Positions 1 through 62,645 of a stretch of 64,000 nucleotides of DNA are shown one piece after another. The notes beneath the pieces were generated by a model. The model was given only the letters and a program-made list of their open reading frames with translations. It made no database searches and was not told where the DNA came from. Location: contig DATMES010000059.1 in NCBI GenBank assembly GCA_035556555.1, positions 12,054 through 76,053 on the forward strand, in the 5' to 3' direction. The stretch is from Frankiaceae bacterium (GTDB lineage: Bacteria > Actinomycetota > Actinomycetes > BP-191). Position 1 is the stretch's first letter, and each line of letters begins with the position of its first letter. Position numbers and translations under genes: made by a program.

Positions 1-95
1 ACCGTTCTACTACTTGCTACTGAACTAGTAGGAAGACGGTATCTTGCTACTGATCTGGTAGCAACTAGTAGAACGCTAGTAGTTAGTCCGCGACG
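1..95. repeat. AT-rich, CTAG-rich short-repeat cluster at the window edge (repeated CTTGCTACTGA and AACTAGTAG units plus short palindromes), sitting 3' of map
   Basis: Seen directly. GC drops sharply against the ~72% background. CTTGCTACTGA occurs twice and ACTAGTAG three times. ttgctac-tgatctg-gtagcaa forms a 7-bp hairpin. The window starts here, so the element may be truncated. Confidence 0.5.
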
Positions 96-3768: not shown

Positions 3769-4995
3769 CTACTGGCCGGGCACCAGCGGCGCGGTGACGC
3801 CCGGCAGCGGCGGGATCGTCGGCAGCGGGGTCGGGAGGACTTCCTCGACCTCCTCGATGACGTCCTGCAGCGGCGACGCGACCGGCGTCGGCACCTGCGA
3901 CGGCACCGGGTAGCGCGACTTCGTCGGCGACGGCGTCGACGGGCTCGGCGACGGGGAGTTGGTCGGCGGCGGGTCGCTCGGCGCCGGCGGGTCGCTCGGC
4001 GGGGCCTGCTCGGACGGCGACGGGGTCGGCTCCGGCGTGGGCTCCGCGCCCGGGTCACCTGGGCAGGTGCACGGCACGGGGCCGAGGTCGTCGTACGTCG
4101 GCGTGGCCACCGGCGTCGGCGGCGTGGTGGCGCCGGGCGACGGGGCGACGGGCTTGAGGGCGGCGCAGTTCTCCGCGCCGCAGGTGCCGACCGCGATGAG
4201 CTGGGTGGCGCGCAGGTGGAGGTTGCTGACGAGCGAGAGCGAGGCCTCCGCGTCGTCGTACGCCTCCGCGGGCAGCGCGCTGATGACGGCGCCGAGGTGC
4301 TCGCGCTGGCGCGCGGTGAACTCCTGGACGTGGCGCAGCACGGCCTCGTCCTGCTCCTGGGTGTACGCCTCGAAGAGCAGGCGCGTGCCGTCGCGGGTCG
4401 AGTCGTCCATGGCGTGCAGGCCCTCGGCGACGCGGGCGGACTTGCTGCCTCCGAACGCCACCGTGATCTGCCCGGGACCGGTCGGCGCCGGCCCGAGCGC
4501 GATGTCCTCGCCGACGATCCGCGCGACCTCGTGCAGGCGGGTCTCGGCGTGCTGGAGGTGGCGCTTGCCGCGGTTGACCTCGTTGCGCGCCAGGCTGAGC
4601 TGGACGCCCTCGGCGCTGCGCTTCATGCCGTACAGCGCGTCGCCGGGTACGGAGCGGCTGGCGCCGACGCTGACACCGGTGAGGGCGACGACGCCGGCCA
4701 TGGAGGCGGCCGCGACCTGCATCGCGCGCTGGACGCGCCAGCCCTCGACCCACGTACGAGCGCGGTCGACGGGGCTCGGGACGGCGGCGGGCGAGGGCGC
4801 GACGGTGGCGACGGCGAGGAGGCGCTGGCGCAGCGTGTCGCGGAAGTCGGGGGCGGCCGCGAGCGGCACGGCCTGGAGGCCCTGCGCGAGGCTCAGCAGG
4901 GGCGCCAGGGCCGGGTCACGGCGCGCGGAGGCGACGCCACTGCCCTCGAGGGCGGCGGCGAACTCCTCTGCCAGACGAGCCGAACGGCGCATCAC
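3769..4995 (-). CDS. Membrane anti-sigma factor (DUF5667-like) with a Pro/Ser-rich C-terminal tail, cognate to the upstream ECF sigma
   Basis: Lies immediately downstream of the ECF sigma gene on the same strand. Has a single TM (AMQVAAASMAGVVALTGVSVGA) and a proline-rich C-terminus. Confidence 0.6.
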   Translation of the reverse strand: MMRRSARLAEEFAAALEGSGVASARRDPALAPLLSLAQGLQAVPLAAAPDFRDTLRQRLLAVATVAPSPAAVPSPVDRARTWVEGWRVQRAMQVAAASMAGVVALTGVSVGASRSVPGDALYGMKRSAEGVQLSLARNEVNRGKRHLQHAETRLHEVARIVGEDIALGPAPTGPGQITVAFGGSKSARVAEGLHAMDDSTRDGTRLLFEAYTQEQDEAVLRHVQEFTARQREHLGAVISALPAEAYDDAEASLSLVSNLHLRATQLIAVGTCGAENCAALKPVAPSPGATTPPTPVATPTYDDLGPVPCTCPGDPGAEPTPEPTPSPSEQAPPSDPPAPSDPPPTNSPSPSPSTPSPTKSRYPVPSQVPTPVASPLQDVIEEVEEVLPTPLPTIPPLPGVTAPLVPGQ

Positions 4996-6058: not shown

Positions 6059-6439
6059 CTACGCGTCGCCGGCGAGCTCGAGGGTCAGCCGGGAGATCTG
6101 GCGTTCGAGCTCGGGGAGGCCGTCGATCTTGCCCAGGCAGAGCGTGACGCCGACCTCCTTGGCCTGCGCCTCGATGACCGGGTCGAGGTACGCCGTGTAG
6201 AGGATGACCGCCTGGGTCGGGCGGGTCTCCTTGATGCGGCGCGTGCTCTCGAGCCCGTCGGTGCCCGGCATCTTCAGATCCATGACGATGACGTCCGGGT
6301 CGGCCTCGATGGCCAGGGCTACGGCCTCGTCGCCGTTGGCCGCCTGCGCCACGACCTCGAACCCGTCGAGCTCCAGCATCTCGGCCAGCATCGTGCGGAC
6401 GTGGTCCGTGTCGTCCACAACCATGACCCGCACGGCCAT
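6059..6439 (-). CDS. Single-domain response regulator (CheY-like receiver)
   Basis: 126 aa. MVVDDTDHVRTML...VIVMDLKMPGTDGLEST...ILYTAY is a receiver domain with the phospho-acceptor Asp. No output domain. Confidence 0.8.
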   Translation of the reverse strand: MAVRVMVVDDTDHVRTMLAEMLELDGFEVVAQAANGDEAVALAIEADPDVIVMDLKMPGTDGLESTRRIKETRPTQAVILYTAYLDPVIEAQAKEVGVTLCLGKIDGLPELERQISRLTLELAGDA

Positions 6440-6473
6440 CGGCTTGTCACACCTCCGTCGTACTCTTCGTCAC

Positions 6474-8702
6474 GTGGCCCAGACTCTCGCGCCTCGCGCG
6501 GCCGGTGGCAACCCCGGTCGCGGGCGCGGTCGCGCGCGCCGCCGCGGCAGGCGGTTCCCGTTCGTGCGCTGGACGCTGCTCGCGGCGGTGGTCGGGCTGC
6601 TGTCGTTCGTCGGCGGGCTGCTCGCCGCGCCGATCGACCTGACCGTGCCCGCGCGGCTGCCCGCCGCCCTGCTGCTCGACGCCAACGAGCGCTACTTCGC
6701 CTCCATCCGCGCGCCCGAGATCCGCGAGGACGTACCCGCCTCCGACATCCCGCAGGCGATGCGGCTCGCGATCATCGCCGCGGAGGACGAACGGTTCCTC
6801 TCGCACAAGGGCGTCGACCCGATCGCGATCATGCGGGCCGGCTACCGCGACATCGTCAACGACTCCCGGCAGGGCGGGTCGACGATCACGCAGCAGTACG
6901 TCAAGAACATCTACGTCGGCCGCGAGCGCACGTACATGCGGAAGATGCGCGAGGCCGCGGTGGCGTACCGCGCGGAGAAGAAGTTCGGCAAGGAAGAGAT
7001 CCTCATCCGCTACCTGAACTCCGTGTACCTCGGCAACGGCACGTACGGCGTGCAGGCCGCGAGCAAGTACTACTTCGGCGTGCCCATCAAGGACCTCGCG
7101 CTGCGCAAGGCGACGGGGGAGCGTTCGGAGACGCTGGAGCTGGCCCGCGCGGCGATCCTCGCCGGCATCGTCGCGGCACCGTCGAAGTACAACCCCGTCC
7201 ACGACATGACGCTCGCGAAGCAGCGGCAGTTCTACACGCTCGAGCGCATGAGCAAGAACGCCTTCATCACGCCGATCCAGGCCTCGCAGGCGTACCGCCA
7301 GCCGCTGGTGCTGGCCAAGCTGCGACCGCCGGCGGAGGCGACCGAGGCGCCGCTGTTCACCGACATGGTCACCGCGGAGCTGAAGGAGACGCTGCCCGAC
7401 GACGACCTCTACCGCGGCGGCCTGCGCATCAAGACGACGCTCGACCTGCTCATGCAGCGGGCGATGGAGCAGTCGGTCTTCGCGGCGCTCCCAGGGCTGA
7501 ATCCCGCGACGCCGAACGACACCGACCCCGACGCGGCGGTCGTCGCGATCGACCCGCGCAACGGCGACCTCAAGGCCGTCTACGCCTCCCGCTACACCCG
7601 CGGCGGTTTCAACACCGCGACCCAGGGCGGGCTGCAGACCGGGTCGGCGATCAAGCCGTTCACCCTCGCCGCCGCGCTCATGAACGGCAGGACGCTCGAC
7701 ACGGTCTACCAGGCGTCCACGTGCACGACCGTGCCGCACACGCCGCAGCCGTACCGGTTCTGCAACGCCGAGCGCGGCGAGACCGGCGGCTACACGCTGC
7801 GCCGCGCGCTCGCGGCCTCGGTCAACACCGTCTACGGCCGCCTCGCGCACGACGTCGGCCGCGCCAAGGTCAAGAAGGTCGCCGTCGACGCAGGCATGGG
7901 CCCGGCGCGCGGCATCGGCACCAACCCCGCCATGGCGCTCGGTGCGGTGTCGGTCACGCCGCTGTCGGTGGCGAAGGCGTACGCCACGCTCGCCGCGGGC
8001 GGCCGGCGCCACGACGTCCGCCTCATCCTCGAGGAGCGTCGCGACGCCGACACGAAGAAGACGTTCAGCGGCATCGAGGTATTCAAGGCGCCCGCGCGGC
8101 CGCGCGGCCGGCAGGTCATCCCCAAGCCCGTCGCCGACCAGGTCGTCGAGGCGATGTACGACGTCGTCGAGCGCGGCACCGGGGGCGGCGCCGCGGTGCC
8201 CGGCAAGCGGGTCTTCGGCAAGACCGGGACGACGAACAACTTCACGAACGCGTGGTTCGCGGGCTGCGTGCCCGAGCTCTGCGTCGTGACGTGGATGGGC
8301 TACAAGAACGCCTCCAACAAGGAGATGCGCAGCGTCCGCGGCGTCGGTCCGGTGTTCGGCGGCACGCTGCCGGCGGCGATCTTCCGCGGCTTCTTCACGA
8401 AGTACGAGGCGCTGAAGGCGGCCGAGGCACGGTCCGAGGACGCGGTGGCGTCGGCCTCGCCGTCGGCGACGCCGTTCCGCCGCCGGCCGACGCCGGTGCG
8501 TACGGTCGCCCCGCAGCCGCGCCCGTCCACGACGCCCAGCCCGACGCCGCGGCGTACGGCCACGCCGACCGCGAGCGCGACGCCCGCGCCGAGCGAGACG
8601 CCGCCGGTGACGACGCCTCCGCCGGAGCCGACCGTGACGGCGTCGTCGACGGGCGACCCGCCGGGCGGCGGCGGCGCGACCGGCCCGCCCGCGCCTCCGT
8701 AG
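6474..8702 (+). CDS. Class A penicillin-binding protein (bifunctional transglycosylase/transpeptidase) with a Pro/Thr-rich C-terminal tail
   Basis: Glycosyltransferase-51 motifs (RLAIIAAEDERFLSHKGVD, ITQQYVKN). Transpeptidase KTGTTNN motif. N-terminal cytoplasmic Arg-rich stretch plus one TM. Start set at an in-frame GTG after the overlapping opposite-strand gene (ORF 6204..8702). Confidence 0.85.
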   Translation: MAQTLAPRAAGGNPGRGRGRARRRGRRFPFVRWTLLAAVVGLLSFVGGLLAAPIDLTVPARLPAALLLDANERYFASIRAPEIREDVPASDIPQAMRLAIIAAEDERFLSHKGVDPIAIMRAGYRDIVNDSRQGGSTITQQYVKNIYVGRERTYMRKMREAAVAYRAEKKFGKEEILIRYLNSVYLGNGTYGVQAASKYYFGVPIKDLALRKATGERSETLELARAAILAGIVAAPSKYNPVHDMTLAKQRQFYTLERMSKNAFITPIQASQAYRQPLVLAKLRPPAEATEAPLFTDMVTAELKETLPDDDLYRGGLRIKTTLDLLMQRAMEQSVFAALPGLNPATPNDTDPDAAVVAIDPRNGDLKAVYASRYTRGGFNTATQGGLQTGSAIKPFTLAAALMNGRTLDTVYQASTCTTVPHTPQPYRFCNAERGETGGYTLRRALAASVNTVYGRLAHDVGRAKVKKVAVDAGMGPARGIGTNPAMALGAVSVTPLSVAKAYATLAAGGRRHDVRLILEERRDADTKKTFSGIEVFKAPARPRGRQVIPKPVADQVVEAMYDVVERGTGGGAAVPGKRVFGKTGTTNNFTNAWFAGCVPELCVVTWMGYKNASNKEMRSVRGVGPVFGGTLPAAIFRGFFTKYEALKAAEARSEDAVASASPSATPFRRRPTPVRTVAPQPRPSTTPSPTPRRTATPTASATPAPSETPPVTTPPPEPTVTASSTGDPPGGGGATGPPAPP

Positions 8703-8721: not shown

Positions 8722-8778
8722 GATCACCTGTGTCCCCCCGCGTACGGCGGAAAGGTCCGCCAGGGGACACAGGTGATC
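8722..8778 (+). terminator. Strong hairpin just 3' of the PBP gene (16-bp perfect stem gatcacctgtgtcccc/ggggacacaggtgatc)
   Basis: A perfect inverted repeat seen directly, about 20 nt after the stop codon. Confidence 0.5.
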
Positions 8779-8885
8779 GTTCTTCGTGCCGGGGGGTGCG
8801 GGGGTGAGCGCTAGTAGCGCTTGGCGAAACGGCCCGATGGTGGCCGAGCGTGACCGGCCGCGTCCCAGGTGAGCGCCTTCGCTCT

Positions 8886-8995
8886 GATCGGGGTGCGATC
8901 TGCGCTTTTTCCCCGCACGGCCCGCAACCCGGTTGCGAAGCCGACCCAGACGCCGTCACCGCACGTGATCATGCGCGGCGTTTCGCCAAGCCCTC
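8886..8995 (+). repeat. Copy 1 of a ~110-bp intergenic repeat family (core GATCGGGGTGCGATCTGCGCTTTTTCCCCGCACGGCCCGCAACCCGGTTGCG) in a convergent 3' intergenic region
   Basis: Near-identical ~52-bp core to the copies at ~54884 and ~61579 (the latter in reverse orientation). Looser similarity extends ~60 bp further. Confidence 0.7.
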
Positions 8996-9691
8996 CTAGC
9001 GGGCGAGGGCGCTCATCGTGTCGGCGTACGCCGTCGCCTGCGCGAACGGGTTCGTGGCCTCGACGTTCTCCGTGGCGAGCGCGGTGAGGAAGCGGCTGGC
9101 GTCCGGGCGGACCGGCGCGGCCGGCGCGGGGCGCTTGGGGGCGACGGCGGCGGGCTTGGCGACCGGCTTGACGACGGGGCGCTGCACCGGGACGCGGACG
9201 ACGGAGCGGGAGACCTGCTTCCGCACCGGCGGCGTCACCTTCGGGGCGGCCATCGGGAGGCGGAAGACCTGGGTCATCCAGATGACGCCGCGGCTGTCGG
9301 TGACGGTGCCGATGCCGATCTCGGTGTACTCGGTGGCGAGGATGTTCGCGCGGTGCGCGGGGGAGTTCATGAGCGCGGTGTGGATGGAGTCGACGGAGCC
9401 GCCGTTGCCGACGTTCTCGCCGACGACCTGCCAGCCGGAGACCTCCGAGCCGAGGCTCGGGTTGTGGTAGAGCTTGCTCTGGGCGGCCATCCGCGCGCTG
9501 TGGCGGGCGGCGACGGCGGTGAGGTCGGACTTGACGACGAGGGCCCGCAGGCCGCGCGAGGTGCGCTCCGCGTTGGCCTTCGCGACGAACGAGCCGGCGT
9601 GCGGGTCGCCCGCGGCCGAGGCCTGCGTGGCGGCGGCGACGCCGAGGAAGAGCACCGGGGCGAGTACCAGGACCGCGAGCTTGCGGAGCAC
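8996..9691 (-). CDS. Secreted CAP/SCP/PR-1-like (YkwD-family) protein, paralog 1 of 3
   Basis: Signal peptide (VLRKLAVLVLAPVLFLGVAAATQASA). CAP-domain motifs (YHNPSLGSEVSGWQVVGENVG, ALMNSPAHRANIL, GIGTV). Start taken at an in-frame GTG (ORF 8996..9742). Confidence 0.8.
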   Translation of the reverse strand: MLRKLAVLVLAPVLFLGVAAATQASAAGDPHAGSFVAKANAERTSRGLRALVVKSDLTAVAARHSARMAAQSKLYHNPSLGSEVSGWQVVGENVGNGGSVDSIHTALMNSPAHRANILATEYTEIGIGTVTDSRGVIWMTQVFRLPMAAPKVTPPVRKQVSRSVVRVPVQRPVVKPVAKPAAVAPKRPAPAAPVRPDASRFLTALATENVEATNPFAQATAYADTMSALAR

Positions 9692-9913
9692 CGGGTTCTC
9701 CTTCGTTAGGCCGATCGTCAGGGCCATCAGTCCCACGACCACTGATCCGATCGGACTAACGCGCTCAGACCTTGAGGGTTACGGAGCGAGTTTTTTCGAC
9801 CACAGGGAGAGACGGCTTGTGTCCTGGTTCGCCGGAAAGGTCGTGCCCACCTGCCGCCCGGCAAGCCACAATGCAGGCTACGGACGCAGGGACTTAGGTC
9901 CCGAACCGCCTGG

Positions 9914-11552: not shown

Positions 11553-11790
11553 GCGCAGACACCTCCGGTGTGAACCCGAGGCGGCTGCCGTCTCAATGTG
11601 CTGAGTCGGTAGACCAGGGACTGGCCGTTGACCCTTCGGTGGGCTGGCTGACTGCCGGAGCAGTTCCATGCCTTTGCGGCCCGCACTCGCGTGCGGTGTG
11701 CCTTTGTCGAGGTCGGCGGTCGTCTCGGTGCTGTTGGCTGAACACCAGGTGTATCGGCCGGTCTAGGAAGAACTTGAACCGAAAGAGTGA

Positions 11791-54578: not shown

Positions 54579-54839
54579 ATGACCGAACCCGAGGCCCACG
54601 TGGACGTTCTCCTGGCTGAGTTCAAGCGCCGCCTCACGGATGGGCGCGACGTGCTCCTCAACGCCCCGGAGACGGTCGACTTCGCGACGTACGACGCGTT
54701 CCGCGTGCGGCTCTCGGAGGCGCGGAACGTCCTCGACGCGCTGCACAGCGAGCTCGAGCGAGTGCTCACGCTCGCGGACGCCCTCTTCGCGGAGGGGTCT
54801 GCCGACCGGCGGGAGATCGCGGAGCGCCTTCACATCTGA
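54579..54839 (+). CDS. Hypothetical small helical protein (86 aa)
   Basis: ORF with an internal Met start that avoids overlap with bldC. No motifs. Confidence 0.3.
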   Translation: MTEPEAHVDVLLAEFKRRLTDGRDVLLNAPETVDFATYDAFRVRLSEARNVLDALHSELERVLTLADALFAEGSADRREIAERLHI

Positions 54840-54883
54840 GGCGGCGGGGTGACGGGGCGTGCCCCTGGGCGCTCGCCCCTCGC

Positions 54884-54998
54884 GATCGGGGTGCGATCTG
54901 CGCTTTTTCCCCGCACGGCCCGCAACCGGGTTGCGGACGTGACCGGCGGTGCCGTCACCGGGGGTGATCGCGGGCGGCGTCCCCCGAGCCGCTCCTAG
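54884..54998 (+). repeat. Copy 2 of the ~110-bp intergenic repeat family (same core as 8886 and 61579), in a convergent intergenic region
   Basis: Core GATCGGGGTGCGATCTGCGCTTTTTCCCCGCACGGCCCGCAACCGGGTTGCGG is near-identical to copy 1. The downstream ~60 bp is also similar. Confidence 0.7.
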
Positions 54999-59741: not shown

Positions 59742-60719
59742 ATGGCCGGGGACGAACACGACGCGATGCTCGCGGAGACGGCGGAGGCGATTCTCGGCCC
59801 CGCGAGGTACACGCGCGAGCAGGCCGCCGAGGCCGCCGGGGTGCCCCACGAGCGGGCCACGCGGCTGTGGCGCGCGATGGGCTTCCCCGAGGTGTCGTAC
59901 GACGAGGTGCTCTTCACGGAGCAGGACGTCGCCGCCCTGCGGACCGCGGAGTCGCTGCGCGCCAACGGTGTCGTGGACGAGGACGGCCTCGTCGCGCTCG
60001 CGCGGTCGATGGCACAGGCGCTGTCGCGGCTCGCGGTCTCGCACGCGGCCATCGCGGGCGAGTACATGCTGCGTACGGCCGCCGGTGACGTCGACACGGA
60101 GACCGCGATGCACCAGGCCGAGTCGCTGGTGCCGGAGGTCGGGGAGCTGCTGTCGTTCGTCTGGCGCAGGCACCTCGTCGCGGCCGCGGAGACGACGCTC
60201 GTCACGCTCCTCGGTGACACCTCGCCGGACGCGCCCGTCGTCGTGGGTTTCGCCGACCTCGCCGGCTTCACGGAGGCCTCGCGCAACCTCGACGCGGCCG
60301 CGCTGGACGCGCTGGTCGAACGCTTCGAGGCCAACGCCACCCACCTCGTCACCGGCCGCGGCGGACGCGTGGTCAAGACGCTCGGCGACGAGGTGTTGTT
60401 CACGGTCGACGACGTCCGCGCCGGCGTCGGCATCGCGCTGGACCTGGCTGAGAACGCCGACACGCTCGGCGGGGAGGTGCGTGTCGGGGCGGCGTACGGG
60501 CCGGTGCTCGCCCGGCTCGGCGACGTGTTCGGGCCCACCGTCAACCTCGCCAGCCGCCTCACCGGCATCGCCCATCCCGGCACCGTCCTCGTCGACCGTG
60601 AAGCCGCGCAGGCGCTGCGCGACGACGCGGCGTACGACGTCTCGCCGATCGCGCGGCGTTCGGTGCGGGGATATGCCCACCTCGCCCCGTTCCGTGTCCG
60701 CAGGGCCACCCGGAACTAG
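59742..60719 (+). CDS. Class III adenylate/guanylate cyclase domain protein with an N-terminal helical (HTH-like) region
   Basis: Cyclase homology domain motifs (VVGFADLAGFTE...KTLGDEVLF...VGAAYGPV...GPTVNLASRL). Start approximate. Confidence 0.75.
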   Translation: MAGDEHDAMLAETAEAILGPARYTREQAAEAAGVPHERATRLWRAMGFPEVSYDEVLFTEQDVAALRTAESLRANGVVDEDGLVALARSMAQALSRLAVSHAAIAGEYMLRTAAGDVDTETAMHQAESLVPEVGELLSFVWRRHLVAAAETTLVTLLGDTSPDAPVVVGFADLAGFTEASRNLDAAALDALVERFEANATHLVTGRGGRVVKTLGDEVLFTVDDVRAGVGIALDLAENADTLGGEVRVGAAYGPVLARLGDVFGPTVNLASRLTGIAHPGTVLVDREAAQALRDDAAYDVSPIARRSVRGYAHLAPFRVRRATRN

Positions 60720-60755
60720 CTCAACGACCCCGCGCAACGCGTCGACAAGAGACGC

Positions 60756-61523
60756 ATGCGTCTCCGCCTGGCCCTGACCTGCCTGGTCGCCCTCACCCCC
60801 GTCACCGTCGCCGCGCCGGCCCAGGCCGCGCCGTGCGCCACCGCCACCCGCACGATCACAGGAACGCTGCGCGGCGAGGACGGCAGGTACGTCGACGCCA
60901 TGCTCGGCTTCGACCTCATCCGCGTCGTCGGCGACCAGCGGCTGCACATCAACGGCCGCGACGGCGCCGACAACTGGGGCTGCGCCGGCCACAAGGGGTA
61001 CGGCCAGGTGCTGCGGGTCAACCCCGACGTCCCCGCGACGGGCTCCACGACGACCGGCACGCAGTACTGGAGCGTCAAGATCCCGGCGATCGTCAACCAG
61101 GTCATCATCGAGGTCTGGCCGCGCGCGGCCGGCACCGGCCCCGTCGACGACCGCCGCTACAGCGGCGCGCTGCGCTGGAAGGTGCCGATCCCGTACGGCC
61201 GCAACATCAACATCAAGCTGCCGCTCGTCTGCGCGGCGGGCGGGCGTACCGGCTACATCGCCGGCAAGGCCACCAAGAACGGCGCGCCCGTCAACGTCGA
61301 CTTCGTCGGCGCGTGGTCGGCGGCGAAGGACAACAACTCCGCGAACCCCATCCAGGGCTTCCGCACGGGCTACGGCACCGACCGCGGCACGTGGATCGTC
61401 CGCAACCTCGCCAGCGGGCAGCCGTACACCATGATCTGGATCGAGAACGGCGTCCGCCGCCAGCGCTACTCCATCGCCGTCAGCGCCTGCCAGGGCACGG
61501 CCGTGAGCACCGTCCGCTTCTAG
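60756..61523 (+). CDS. Secreted hypothetical protein (255 aa, 4 Cys)
   Basis: Signal peptide (MRLRLALTCLVALTPVTVAAPAQAA). Confidence 0.5.
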   Translation: MRLRLALTCLVALTPVTVAAPAQAAPCATATRTITGTLRGEDGRYVDAMLGFDLIRVVGDQRLHINGRDGADNWGCAGHKGYGQVLRVNPDVPATGSTTTGTQYWSVKIPAIVNQVIIEVWPRAAGTGPVDDRRYSGALRWKVPIPYGRNINIKLPLVCAAGGRTGYIAGKATKNGAPVNVDFVGAWSAAKDNNSANPIQGFRTGYGTDRGTWIVRNLASGQPYTMIWIENGVRRQRYSIAVSACQGTAVSTVRF

Positions 61524-61578
61524 GGCTTGGCAGGACGCCGCAGGCGACCACCCGCGGTGACGGCGCCGCCGACATCTC

Positions 61579-61680
61579 CGCAACCGGGTTGCGGGCCGTG
61601 CGGCGAAAAAGCGCAGACCGCACCCCGATCACGTGCGGAGGTCGTCACCGGAACGCGAACGGTCACGCCCGGTCACCAGC
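61579..61680 (-). repeat. Copy 3 of the ~110-bp intergenic repeat family, reverse orientation, in a convergent intergenic region
   Basis: The reverse complement, GATCGGGGTGCGGTCTGCGCTTTTTCGCCGCACGGCCCGCAACCCGGTTGCGG, matches copies 1 and 2. Confidence 0.7.
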
Positions 61681-61700
61681 CAGTCCGTTTCGCCGAGCCT

Positions 61701-62645
61701 CTACGAGAGGCCGGTCGCGACCTCGTCGACGGGACGGCGCGGGGTCGGCGCGCCGTCGCTGCCGACGCCGAGCCGGAGGACGAGCTGCGGGAAGCCGGGC
61801 AGCATCAGCTCCTGGCGCAGCTTCGCGCGCATCGCGGGCAGCTCGATCGGCTGGTTGAGGAACGACGCCGACACCCCCAGCACCGTCGCGCGCAGCAGCA
61901 CCGCCTCCAGCGCCATCCCCGCGCGCAGCCAGTCGGCGGGCCGGTCGCCGTCGGTCCAGAGCACCGCGGCGAGGGGGCGGTCGACGCCGTACGTCGTCGC
62001 GCGCGGCACATCACCGGTCAGGTCGAAGTCGCGCTGCACGTACGCCGCGCGGTACGACCCCGTCGCGCCCGGCCCGCGTGCGGCGACCGGGATGCCGTCG
62101 GACCACTCGCGCAGCTCCGCCTCGAACGCCGGGTCCCGCGACCAGACCCGGTCCGCGCGGCCGATGAGCGCCGCGAGCGTCTGCCGTAGTCCCGGCGTCG
62201 CGACCAGGTGCAGCGTCGCGCCCTCCGCCTCGGCGGCGTCCTGCAGAAGGAACGGCGCGCCGGGCTCCATGGCGTCGGCGTCGAGCGGCCCGCGGTCGGT
62301 GTGCCGCACGGGGATCGCGGCGTACGCCGCCATGTCGGACACGGTGGGGGACACGGGCCGGCCCGGCGTGACGCGTGCGAGCAGGCTGAAGCCCGCCCCC
62401 TCGGGGAAGAGCGCGGTGACCGGTTCGCGTCCCTCGCAGCGCATGGCGAGGCGCAGGGCGTACAGCGCGGCGCCGCACGAGATCACCAGCTCGCGCCCTT
62501 GCGGGTCGGAGACGGGCATCGCGCGGGAGCCGTCGGCGTGCAGCTCGACCACGCCGTCGGCGATCTCGAACCGCCACGGCTGCGCGTTGTGCTTGGACGG
62601 GGCGTGGGTGGCGGCCTCGACGCAGCGCCGCAAAAGGTCGGTCAT
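61701..62645 (-). CDS. Acg-like tandem nitroreductase-fold protein (FMN-binding family, DosR-regulon type)
   Basis: Nitroreductase-family N-terminus (RCVEAATHAPSKHNAQPWRF). Two-domain length (~314 aa). Context of a USP and a NarL-type regulator. Confidence 0.7.
   Translation of the reverse strand: MTDLLRRCVEAATHAPSKHNAQPWRFEIADGVVELHADGSRAMPVSDPQGRELVISCGAALYALRLAMRCEGREPVTALFPEGAGFSLLARVTPGRPVSPTVSDMAAYAAIPVRHTDRGPLDADAMEPGAPFLLQDAAEAEGATLHLVATPGLRQTLAALIGRADRVWSRDPAFEAELREWSDGIPVAARGPGATGSYRAAYVQRDFDLTGDVPRATTYGVDRPLAAVLWTDGDRPADWLRAGMALEAVLLRATVLGVSASFLNQPIELPAMRAKLRQELMLPGFPQLVLRLGVGSDGAPTPRRPVDEVATGLS

Follow-up and report, generated by a model that had tools for sequence, protein, structure and literature searches.

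E1, a probable lineage-restricted MITE at CTAG stop codons of an uncultured Frankiaceae- or Mycobacteriales-like actinobacterium

The repeat family dealt with here, designated E1, is a new lineage-restricted MITE that goes beyond the ordinary in two respects: conservation is higher in its centre than at its ends, and this centre is the target of a second MITE, designated E2. Three copies of E1 are present in the window, i.e. the whole 64-kb stretch of DNA analysed, which has a G+C content of 72.5%. Their common 52-nt core, GATCGGGGTGCGRTCTGCGCTTTTTCSCCGCACGGCCCGCAACCSGGTTGCG, was matched three times with 0 mismatches, the number expected from 100 dinucleotide-preserving shuffles of the window being 0.00, and an nhmmer profile of the three copies revealed no fourth one within the 64 kb. 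The preliminary description of this DNA, made from the sequence alone, was thus right both about the near-identical core in three copies and about the rarity of T5 tracts in this genome, as only five runs of T or A of at least five nucleotides occur in the 64 kb, three of them being the E1 cores. The length of about 110 bp given there was, on the other hand, an underestimate, since the flanks delimit a unit of 181 bp with CTAG on each side (Table 1).

The boundaries are seen in at least ten E1 copies, in which the similarity ends sharply at the CTAG on both sides, the sequences beyond being all different. The TIR, GCTTGGCGAAACG, is 13 nt long and perfect at both ends (15 of 18 positions match when counted from the CTAG); in copy 1 the inverted pair GCTTGGCGAAACG and CGTTTCGCCAAGC is found with each member four bases inside its CTAG, and the right end was also matched by nhmmer to the left end in reverse. 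Copy 2 is incomplete, its left end having been shortened by some 25 bp, with the loss of both TIR and CTAG. The E1 copies differ from each other by 1- and 2-nt indels, and an internal ORF of 53 aa is not kept, subfamily B being devoid of its ATG; E1 as a coding sequence was ruled out by these frame-breaking indels.

Table 1. Positions of the E1 copies, their parts and neighbouring genes in the window, and of the E2 copies in related loci (prefix L)
Feature	Position	Strand	Basis
E1 copy 1, young subfamily A, CTAG + 181 bp + CTAG	8811–8999	+	homology to ~13 near-identical copies stops at both CTAGs
Copy 1, left TIR, TAGC GCTTGGCGAAACG	8815–8831	+	13-nt perfect inverted repeat with 8979–8991
Copy 1, right TIR, GAGG GCTTGGCGAAACG on the − strand	8979–8995	−	inverted-repeat match to left end
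Copy 1, left CTAG, duplicated target copy	8811–8814	.	next flank CGCTCACCCCC (− strand) continues the sequence after the single CTAG in L048
Copy 1, right CTAG, TAG stop of the CAP-domain gene, pre-existing target site	8996–8999	.	same ...GCCCG-CTAG in empty relatives
Copy 1, hairpin 1 + T5, terminator-like module in the element's sense direction	8871–8910	+	RNAfold
Copy 1, conserved core (52-mer)	8886–8937	+	exact pattern match
Copy 1, palindrome CGCAAC-CCG-GTTGCG (hairpin 2), E2 landing site in related loci	8923–8937	.	within window, inside E1 only
E1 copy 2, older subfamily B, left-truncated	54840–54998	+	alignment and nhmmer
Copy 2, core	54884–54935	+	exact match
E1 copy 3, subfamily B, flanks CTAG 61520–61523 and CTA 61701–61703	61520–61703	−	empty-site comparison, ORFs
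Copy 3, core	61579–61630	−	exact match
Copy 1 neighbour, class A penicillin-binding protein (PBP), TAG stop	6204–8702	+	GC3 and Pfam
Copy 1 neighbour, CAP-domain protein, TAG stop	8996–9742	−	GC3 0.98 and Pfam CAP match
Copy 2 neighbour, small ORF	TGA at 54837–54839	+	GC3 and Pfam
Copy 2 neighbour, small ORF	TAG stop in right CTAG, 54995–54998	−	GC3 and Pfam
Copy 3 neighbour, 255-aa protein, TAG stop	60756–61523	+	GC3 and Pfam
Copy 3 neighbour, nitroreductase-like protein, TAG stop	ending at 61701	−	GC3 and Pfam
E2 copy	L014:6973–7190	−	
Other E2 copies	L016:3734–3951, L021:393–608, L004:572–788, L023:14112–14225, L021:12750–12862, L017:2953–3169		

The mobility of E1 is documented by contigs of relatives, which were reached via homologues of two E1-flanking proteins. 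At the site of copy 1, three of them—L048 (95% nucleotide identity), L049 (88–92%; on a JGI contig of 811 kb, with 17 kb in collinearity with the window) and L050 (92%)—have a single CTAG and the 181 bp are absent; they read ...ATGAGCGCCCTCGCCCG-CTAG and then unique sequence, which in L048 is CGCGTCACCCCC, the window on the same strand reading ...GCCCG-CTAG-[181 bp]-CTAG-CGCTCACCCCC. A single CTAG is found at the CAP stop also in L041, a more distant Frankiaceae MAG. The empty site for copy 3 is offered by L044 (Logan SRR20661040), 92% identical on both sides, that aligns to window positions 60058–61526 and then directly to 61698–61996; here one CTAG forms the overlap between the 255-aa gene and the nitroreductase gene, supplying a TAG for each strand, and in the window 177 bp stand between the CTAG and a CTA. 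The left junction of copy 3 is not a clean one, having an extra Ser codon and reading CG-TAG. There is thus one CTAG in each of the four empty loci (L044, L048–L050) versus one on both sides of the filled copy 1, which is the target-site duplication that the preliminary description had suggested looking for. With the CTAG duplicated, TIRs at the ends, its copy number and no coding content, E1 is therefore a MITE, or non-autonomous DNA transposon, in the working sense of the term, and it is very probably one that duplicates either CTAG or the TA inside CTAG. The original suggestion of a miniature mobile element at gene ends has accordingly been borne out by the TIRs, the CTAG flanks, the dispersed copies and the precise empty sites.

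Several other features were observed around copy 1 and in the relatives. A hairpin with a 16-bp stem, GATCACCTGTGTCCCC...GGGGACACAGGTGATC, is located between the PBP gene and E1 at window positions 8722–8778; it is kept at the orthologous site in L049 (10773–10829), with repeats in L011, L021 and L050, and it is probably a native bidirectional terminator, itself a small repeat family. A different hairpin repeat, GTGATCTTGGCTGCG...CGCAGCCAAGATCAC, occurs twice in the orthologous PBP/CAP spacer of a more distant relative (L042:8290–8600); small repeats have accumulated in this spacer in several lineages. In L050 the CAP gene is immediately followed by a ParE/Phd toxin-antitoxin pair (3990–4553), the overlap of the ParE gene with the CAP stop consisting again of the 4 nt CTAG. 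A stretch of about 2.8 kb with three ORFs, one of them with a weak Peptidase_C39_2 match, is present at L049:17527–20346 and absent from the window at 1997–1999, an indel unrelated to E1.

Beyond the window, about 20 further E1 copies were found by nhmmer, spread over 16 contigs from a single soil metagenome, Ga0190268, their flanks being mutually unrelated. The metagenome loci came from a scan of the JGI metagenome collection for a 19-nt pattern of the core, which matched 24 loci, 17 of them from Ga0190268, on contigs of up to 277 kb; the remaining seven were rejected as chance matches with no further similarity to E1. In a megablast comparison only E1 in the Ga0190268 loci matches the window. 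The copy number of three, as first described, therefore holds for the window only, the wider search proposed at that time having shown the family to extend further. Most copies constitute a young subfamily A, 94–99% identical both to copy 1 and to each other, and copies 2 and 3 fall into a looser, older set B. An apparent ‘solo core’ element at L016:3677 and L021:12701 was rejected, both being old E1 copies because their flanks retain decayed arm sequence.

It should be mentioned that some of the copies are accompanied by irregularities. The E1 terminus is duplicated beside a full copy at L016:12104–12123 (CTAGTAGTGC-CTAGTAGCGC), it occurs twice beside a full copy at L017:6325–6363 (TTTCGCCAAGCCCTCCTAG), and at L021:330–350 two E1 copies abut at one CTAG; all these may be footprints or repeated insertions at the same CTAG. 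At L001:656–760 the left arm is replaced by tandem units of GGTGGGG(G)CGGTGCGGC, a microsatellite-like expansion within E1.

The distribution of E1 is narrow. A 24-nt core pattern had no exact match in 185,579 reference genomes (one genome per species), blastn of the whole E1 and of each of its ends against 72,556 plasmids yielded none or chance matches only, the core gave no match in viral contigs, no E1 was detected by nhmmer in any locus from the close relatives (88–95% nucleotide identity), and a full-text literature search for the TIR string returned nothing relevant. E1 is restricted to one lineage. The best matches of the PBP beyond itself are 69–81% identical, several of them named as Frankiaceae MAGs, and a scan of the reference genomes with the PBP retrieved only proteins of other phyla, with 30–35% identity. 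The host belongs to the Frankiaceae- or Mycobacteriales-like actinobacteria and is uncultured. The only TIR match in viral contigs is a 65-bp stretch with CTAG on both sides in IMG/VR UViG_3300044797_000084 (L043:1764–1827, − strand), which begins with the right-end TIR of E1 (GAGGGCTTGGCGAAAC) and repeats TTGGCGAAA; it could be the remnant of a related element or have matched by chance.

A different reading is that E1 would be an RNA element serving the host in regulation or structure, for instance as a terminator family or a small RNA, and would owe its spread to duplication or recombination and not to transposition. Such an origin would agree with the location at gene 3′ ends, with the conserved terminator-like hairpin followed by U5 and with the young copy folding better than its shuffles; it is, however, contradicted by the TIRs, the duplicated CTAG flanks and the precise empty sites in four relative loci, by the lack of an Rfam family match, by the loss of the whole-element fold in the older copies, as well as by the absence of E1 from both the 88–95% identical relatives and the 185,579 reference genomes. 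It is highly improbable and has been largely refuted by the empty sites. The fold of the whole element compared with shuffles reached z = −3.1 for copy 1, −1.5 for copy 3 and −0.3 for copy 2; since it beats the shuffles only in the young copy, decaying inverted repeats are indicated rather than a maintained large RNA, and the large structured RNA was rejected because its fold is not kept in the older copies. The small structured RNA that had been among the roles first considered has thus not been borne out, Rfam giving no match for E1 either: with Rfam 15 the only gathering-score match in the window was a c-di-GMP-I riboswitch, not at E1, six related loci had no match reaching the gathering score, and the L014 stretch with E1 and E2 gave none at E ≤ 1. 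The − strand carries three CAP-domain genes in tandem, and the riboswitch (RF01051, 50.3 bits; 11635–11712, − strand) is positioned directly upstream of the first one.

It could also be considered that E1 is a REP/REPIN-type palindrome mobilised by a RAYT, i.e. an IS200/IS605-like tyrosine transposase, acting on single-stranded hairpins. E1 indeed resembles REP/BIME and REPIN in being an intergenic palindromic repeat often found between convergent genes, it has a long imperfect foldback, and its left end contains GTAG (CTAGTAGC). Unlike these, however, it possesses TIRs, duplicates its target and is missing from the orthologous sites of close relatives; GTAG is found at the left end only, the right end being without it, CTAG stands on both sides of E1 versus one CTAG in the empty sites, and no RAYT gene was incidentally noticed. 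REPINs are not known to duplicate their target upon insertion. A REPIN nature of E1 is therefore scarcely credible.

Returning to E1 as a CTAG-directed MITE, its position with respect to genes can be understood from the target itself. The CTAG at the right end is the TAG stop of the adjoining gene in all three window copies, and in copy 3 stop codons are found at both ends; with regard to copy 2, Pfam gave no match for either of the small ORFs flanking it. In the window CTAG occurs 24 times versus 80 expected from the dinucleotide content and 159 from the base content, about 10 of the 24 being the stop of a well-supported ORF and the remainder appearing intergenic. Because the third codon positions have a G+C content of about 96%, CTAG is hardly possible inside genes; being scarce and confined almost entirely to NNC-TAG stops and to spacers, it makes E1 land at gene ends, and since it reads TAG on both strands, its duplication leaves a stop for the gene on either side. 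CTAG targeting explains the gene-end location of E1, a point missed in the preliminary description, according to which the copies always lie between convergent genes. This is true of the three window copies and of most resolved copies elsewhere, but not of L007, where E1 is found between genes of the same direction, probably not of L005, where it is likewise, and not of L010, where a possible start codon follows it at a distance of 11 nt, all gene contexts outside the window being approximate as delivered by a crude GC3-based gene caller. Selection against insertions upstream of genes would enrich convergent junctions further. Three of the 24 window CTAGs belong to the beginning of the window (1–95), which is AT-richer and carries repeated CTAGTAG and TTGCTACT...AGTAGCAA inverted motifs that look like an operator array.

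Conservation in ordinary MITEs is highest in the TIRs. E1 deviates from this prediction of the plain MITE model, its centre being better conserved than its TIRs. Across the diverged copies, the identity is 46% in the left arm, 67% in the right arm and 96% in the 52-nt core, the conservation of the latter being partly biased, since the metagenome copies were found by the 19-nt core pattern; the excess nevertheless persists outside these 19 nt, where the core positions are 96% identical across the diverged copies, too. Within the young subfamily, differences from the consensus amount to 22/714 (3.1%) and 28/602 (4.7%) in the arms and to 2/427 (0.5%) in the core outside the 19-mer. As the fourfold-degenerate sites differ only by 9–19% between the window and the relatives without the insertions, the divergence of the arms among the B copies largely pre-dates the insertion, and several source lineages with the same centre have therefore to be assumed. 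Clearly decayed cores, with 6–9 changes, were seen only in three copies interrupted by E2, the numbers being small and the ascertainment uneven.

As far as the structure of the centre is concerned, folding of 12 variants yielded a hairpin with energies between −9.5 and −17.8 kcal/mol, its end lying 0–2 nt before UUUU(U). In copy 1, hairpin 1 has −12.5 kcal/mol with its stem ending 0 nt before UUUUU (RNAfold), a simple terminator scan recognised the inner 5-bp stem and the T run in copies 1 and 3, and a diverged copy (L021:472) has kept a perfect 10-bp stem via paired changes on both sides. On the opposite strand, the first strong hairpin is the perfect, 7-bp one of the palindrome CGCAAC-CSG-GTTGCG—found nowhere else in the window than in E1—and no U tract comes after it. 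A hairpin with a U tract, as in intrinsic terminators, is thus seen in the sense direction only, so that of the factor-independent bidirectional terminators initially proposed, one direction is plausible from the folding of the 12 variants with U5, but the other, without a U tract, is not. The ancestral state of the copy 3 site had no intergenic terminator at all, and therefore no terminator needed replacing there. The centre of E1 could, in terms of these predicted folds, be a terminator-like payload making the insertions harmless, the chances of which we place at or somewhat below an even balance; it is about equally possible that gene conversion homogenises the centre or that transposition requires it in cis.

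If the core had no function, E1 would be an ordinary selfish MITE devoid of any terminator role, its core being kept uniform either via short-tract gene conversion, which would homogenise the segment in which the many copies are most alike, or by a centre common to several active source lineages and needed in cis during transposition. The two core polymorphisms, C/G after T5 and another C/G in the middle of the palindrome, are found in each of the four possible combinations, pointing to exchange or recurrent change, and copy 3 post-dates the split from a relative with only 12.5% difference at fourfold sites, yet its arms are 35–40% off the other B copies, which again points to several source lineages; in addition, 6 of about 25 E1 copies tolerate E2 inside the core. 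It is more difficult to reconcile a non-functional core with the contrast in the young subfamily between the core outside the 19-mer and the arms (2/427 differences against 22/714 and 28/602), with the hairpin adjoining U5 kept through paired changes in the diverged copy, and with T5 tracts being otherwise very rare in this genome. A core without function is a real, albeit minority, possibility.

The second element, E2, is a MITE-like sequence of 218 bp with the TIRs GAGCCYTTKTCCATCCTG, present in the Ga0190268 loci. In six of its seven copies it resides, in both orientations, in the central 3 nt of the E1 palindrome CGCAAC-CSG-GTTGCG, its insertion duplicating the 3 bp, CSG; the remaining copy is located elsewhere. 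E2 is absent from the 64-kb window and has no match in Rfam. Taken together with the terminator-like centre, this might be read so that E1 is a ‘self-insulating’ MITE, combining a stop-codon CTAG target, a 55-nt terminator or insulator payload kept by purifying selection once inserted, and a palindrome serving as the landing pad for E2, a combination we consider rather unlikely as a whole. If it were true, new 3′-end signals would be installed between convergent genes and a two-level, sequence-addressed MITE-in-MITE system would exist.

A possible course of events can be outlined as follows. A transposase acting in trans would most likely recognise the TIRs (T/G)AG(C/G)GCTTGGCGAAACG, and the 181-bp E1 would integrate at the palindromic CTAG, duplicating the target, where the duplicated unit would be either all four bases, as in the IS5 family, or only TA at the centre, as in IS630/Tc1. 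A 4-bp duplication of the IS5 type would agree with the CTAG flanks, and so would a TA duplication of the IS630/Tc1 type, the two being inseparable because the target is palindromic. Insertion would take place at gene ends, often at convergent junctions, with TAG rebuilt for both genes and no frame damaged; the central hairpin with U5 and then the perfect 6–7-bp palindrome would act as a terminator or insulator making the insertions harmless, and this harmlessness would be the reason why the centre stays nearly invariant. Both the transposase family and the terminator role of E1 are what we infer. The autonomous partner would be expected to be bounded by CTAG and (T/G)AG(C/G)GCTTGGCGAAAC; no autonomous element with the E1 TIRs was found in 276 kb of host DNA at up to 2 mismatches, CTAG-flanked inverted ends 60–3000 bp apart in the same 276 kb were only those of E1 copies, the E1 ends match no plasmid-borne IS, and viral contigs contained no autonomous partner.

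Several known systems are reminiscent of E1. ISPsy2 belongs to the IS5 family, and many ends of this family begin with GAGG. A derivative of ISPsy2, MITEPsy1 from Pseudomonas syringae, has CTAG (or YTAA) as its insertion target and duplicates 4 nt there (PMC3189936). E1 resembles it in being small, non-coding, equipped with TIRs and inserted at CTAG, and its right TIR begins with GAGG; it differs by having no sequence similarity, by its length of 181 bp versus 100 nt, by its actinobacterial host, by no parent IS being found and by its centre being more conserved than the TIRs. With regard to the MITEs derived from IS630/Tc1-mariner (Stowaway-like), a TA duplication gives the same CTAG...CTAG look, but no IS630-type transposase is linked to E1. 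IS630 prefers TA inside CTAG and duplicates TA. Among the IS families of Frankia genomes it is one of the major ones (PMC2770080). The pneumococcal repeats, which are known to insert into one another (reviewed in PMC10969869), are likewise dispersed, small and similar to intrinsic terminators, and the insertion of E2 into E1 parallels their nested insertion; their host is, however, from another phylum and their sequence is unrelated, E1 being moreover distinguished by its TIRs, target duplication and empty sites. The insertion of E2 into the E1 palindrome resembles that of IS1397 and ISKpn1 into REP/BIME loops. Both these elements insert there specifically.

Based on the above results, the pattern of convergent gene ends can be put down simply to where targets are available: when a genome is rich in G+C, directing an element at CTAG brings it to TAG stops, which its own duplication then repairs. 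For practical purposes, the E1 insertions are clean strain-level markers for an uncultured Frankiaceae-like soil lineage, and a warning for annotation follows from the fact that ORF finders call spurious peptides inside the E1 copies. If the centre does terminate transcription, E1 would be a natural mobile element spreading ready-made 3′-end signals, and the E1/E2 pair would represent a compact case of sequence-addressed transposition.
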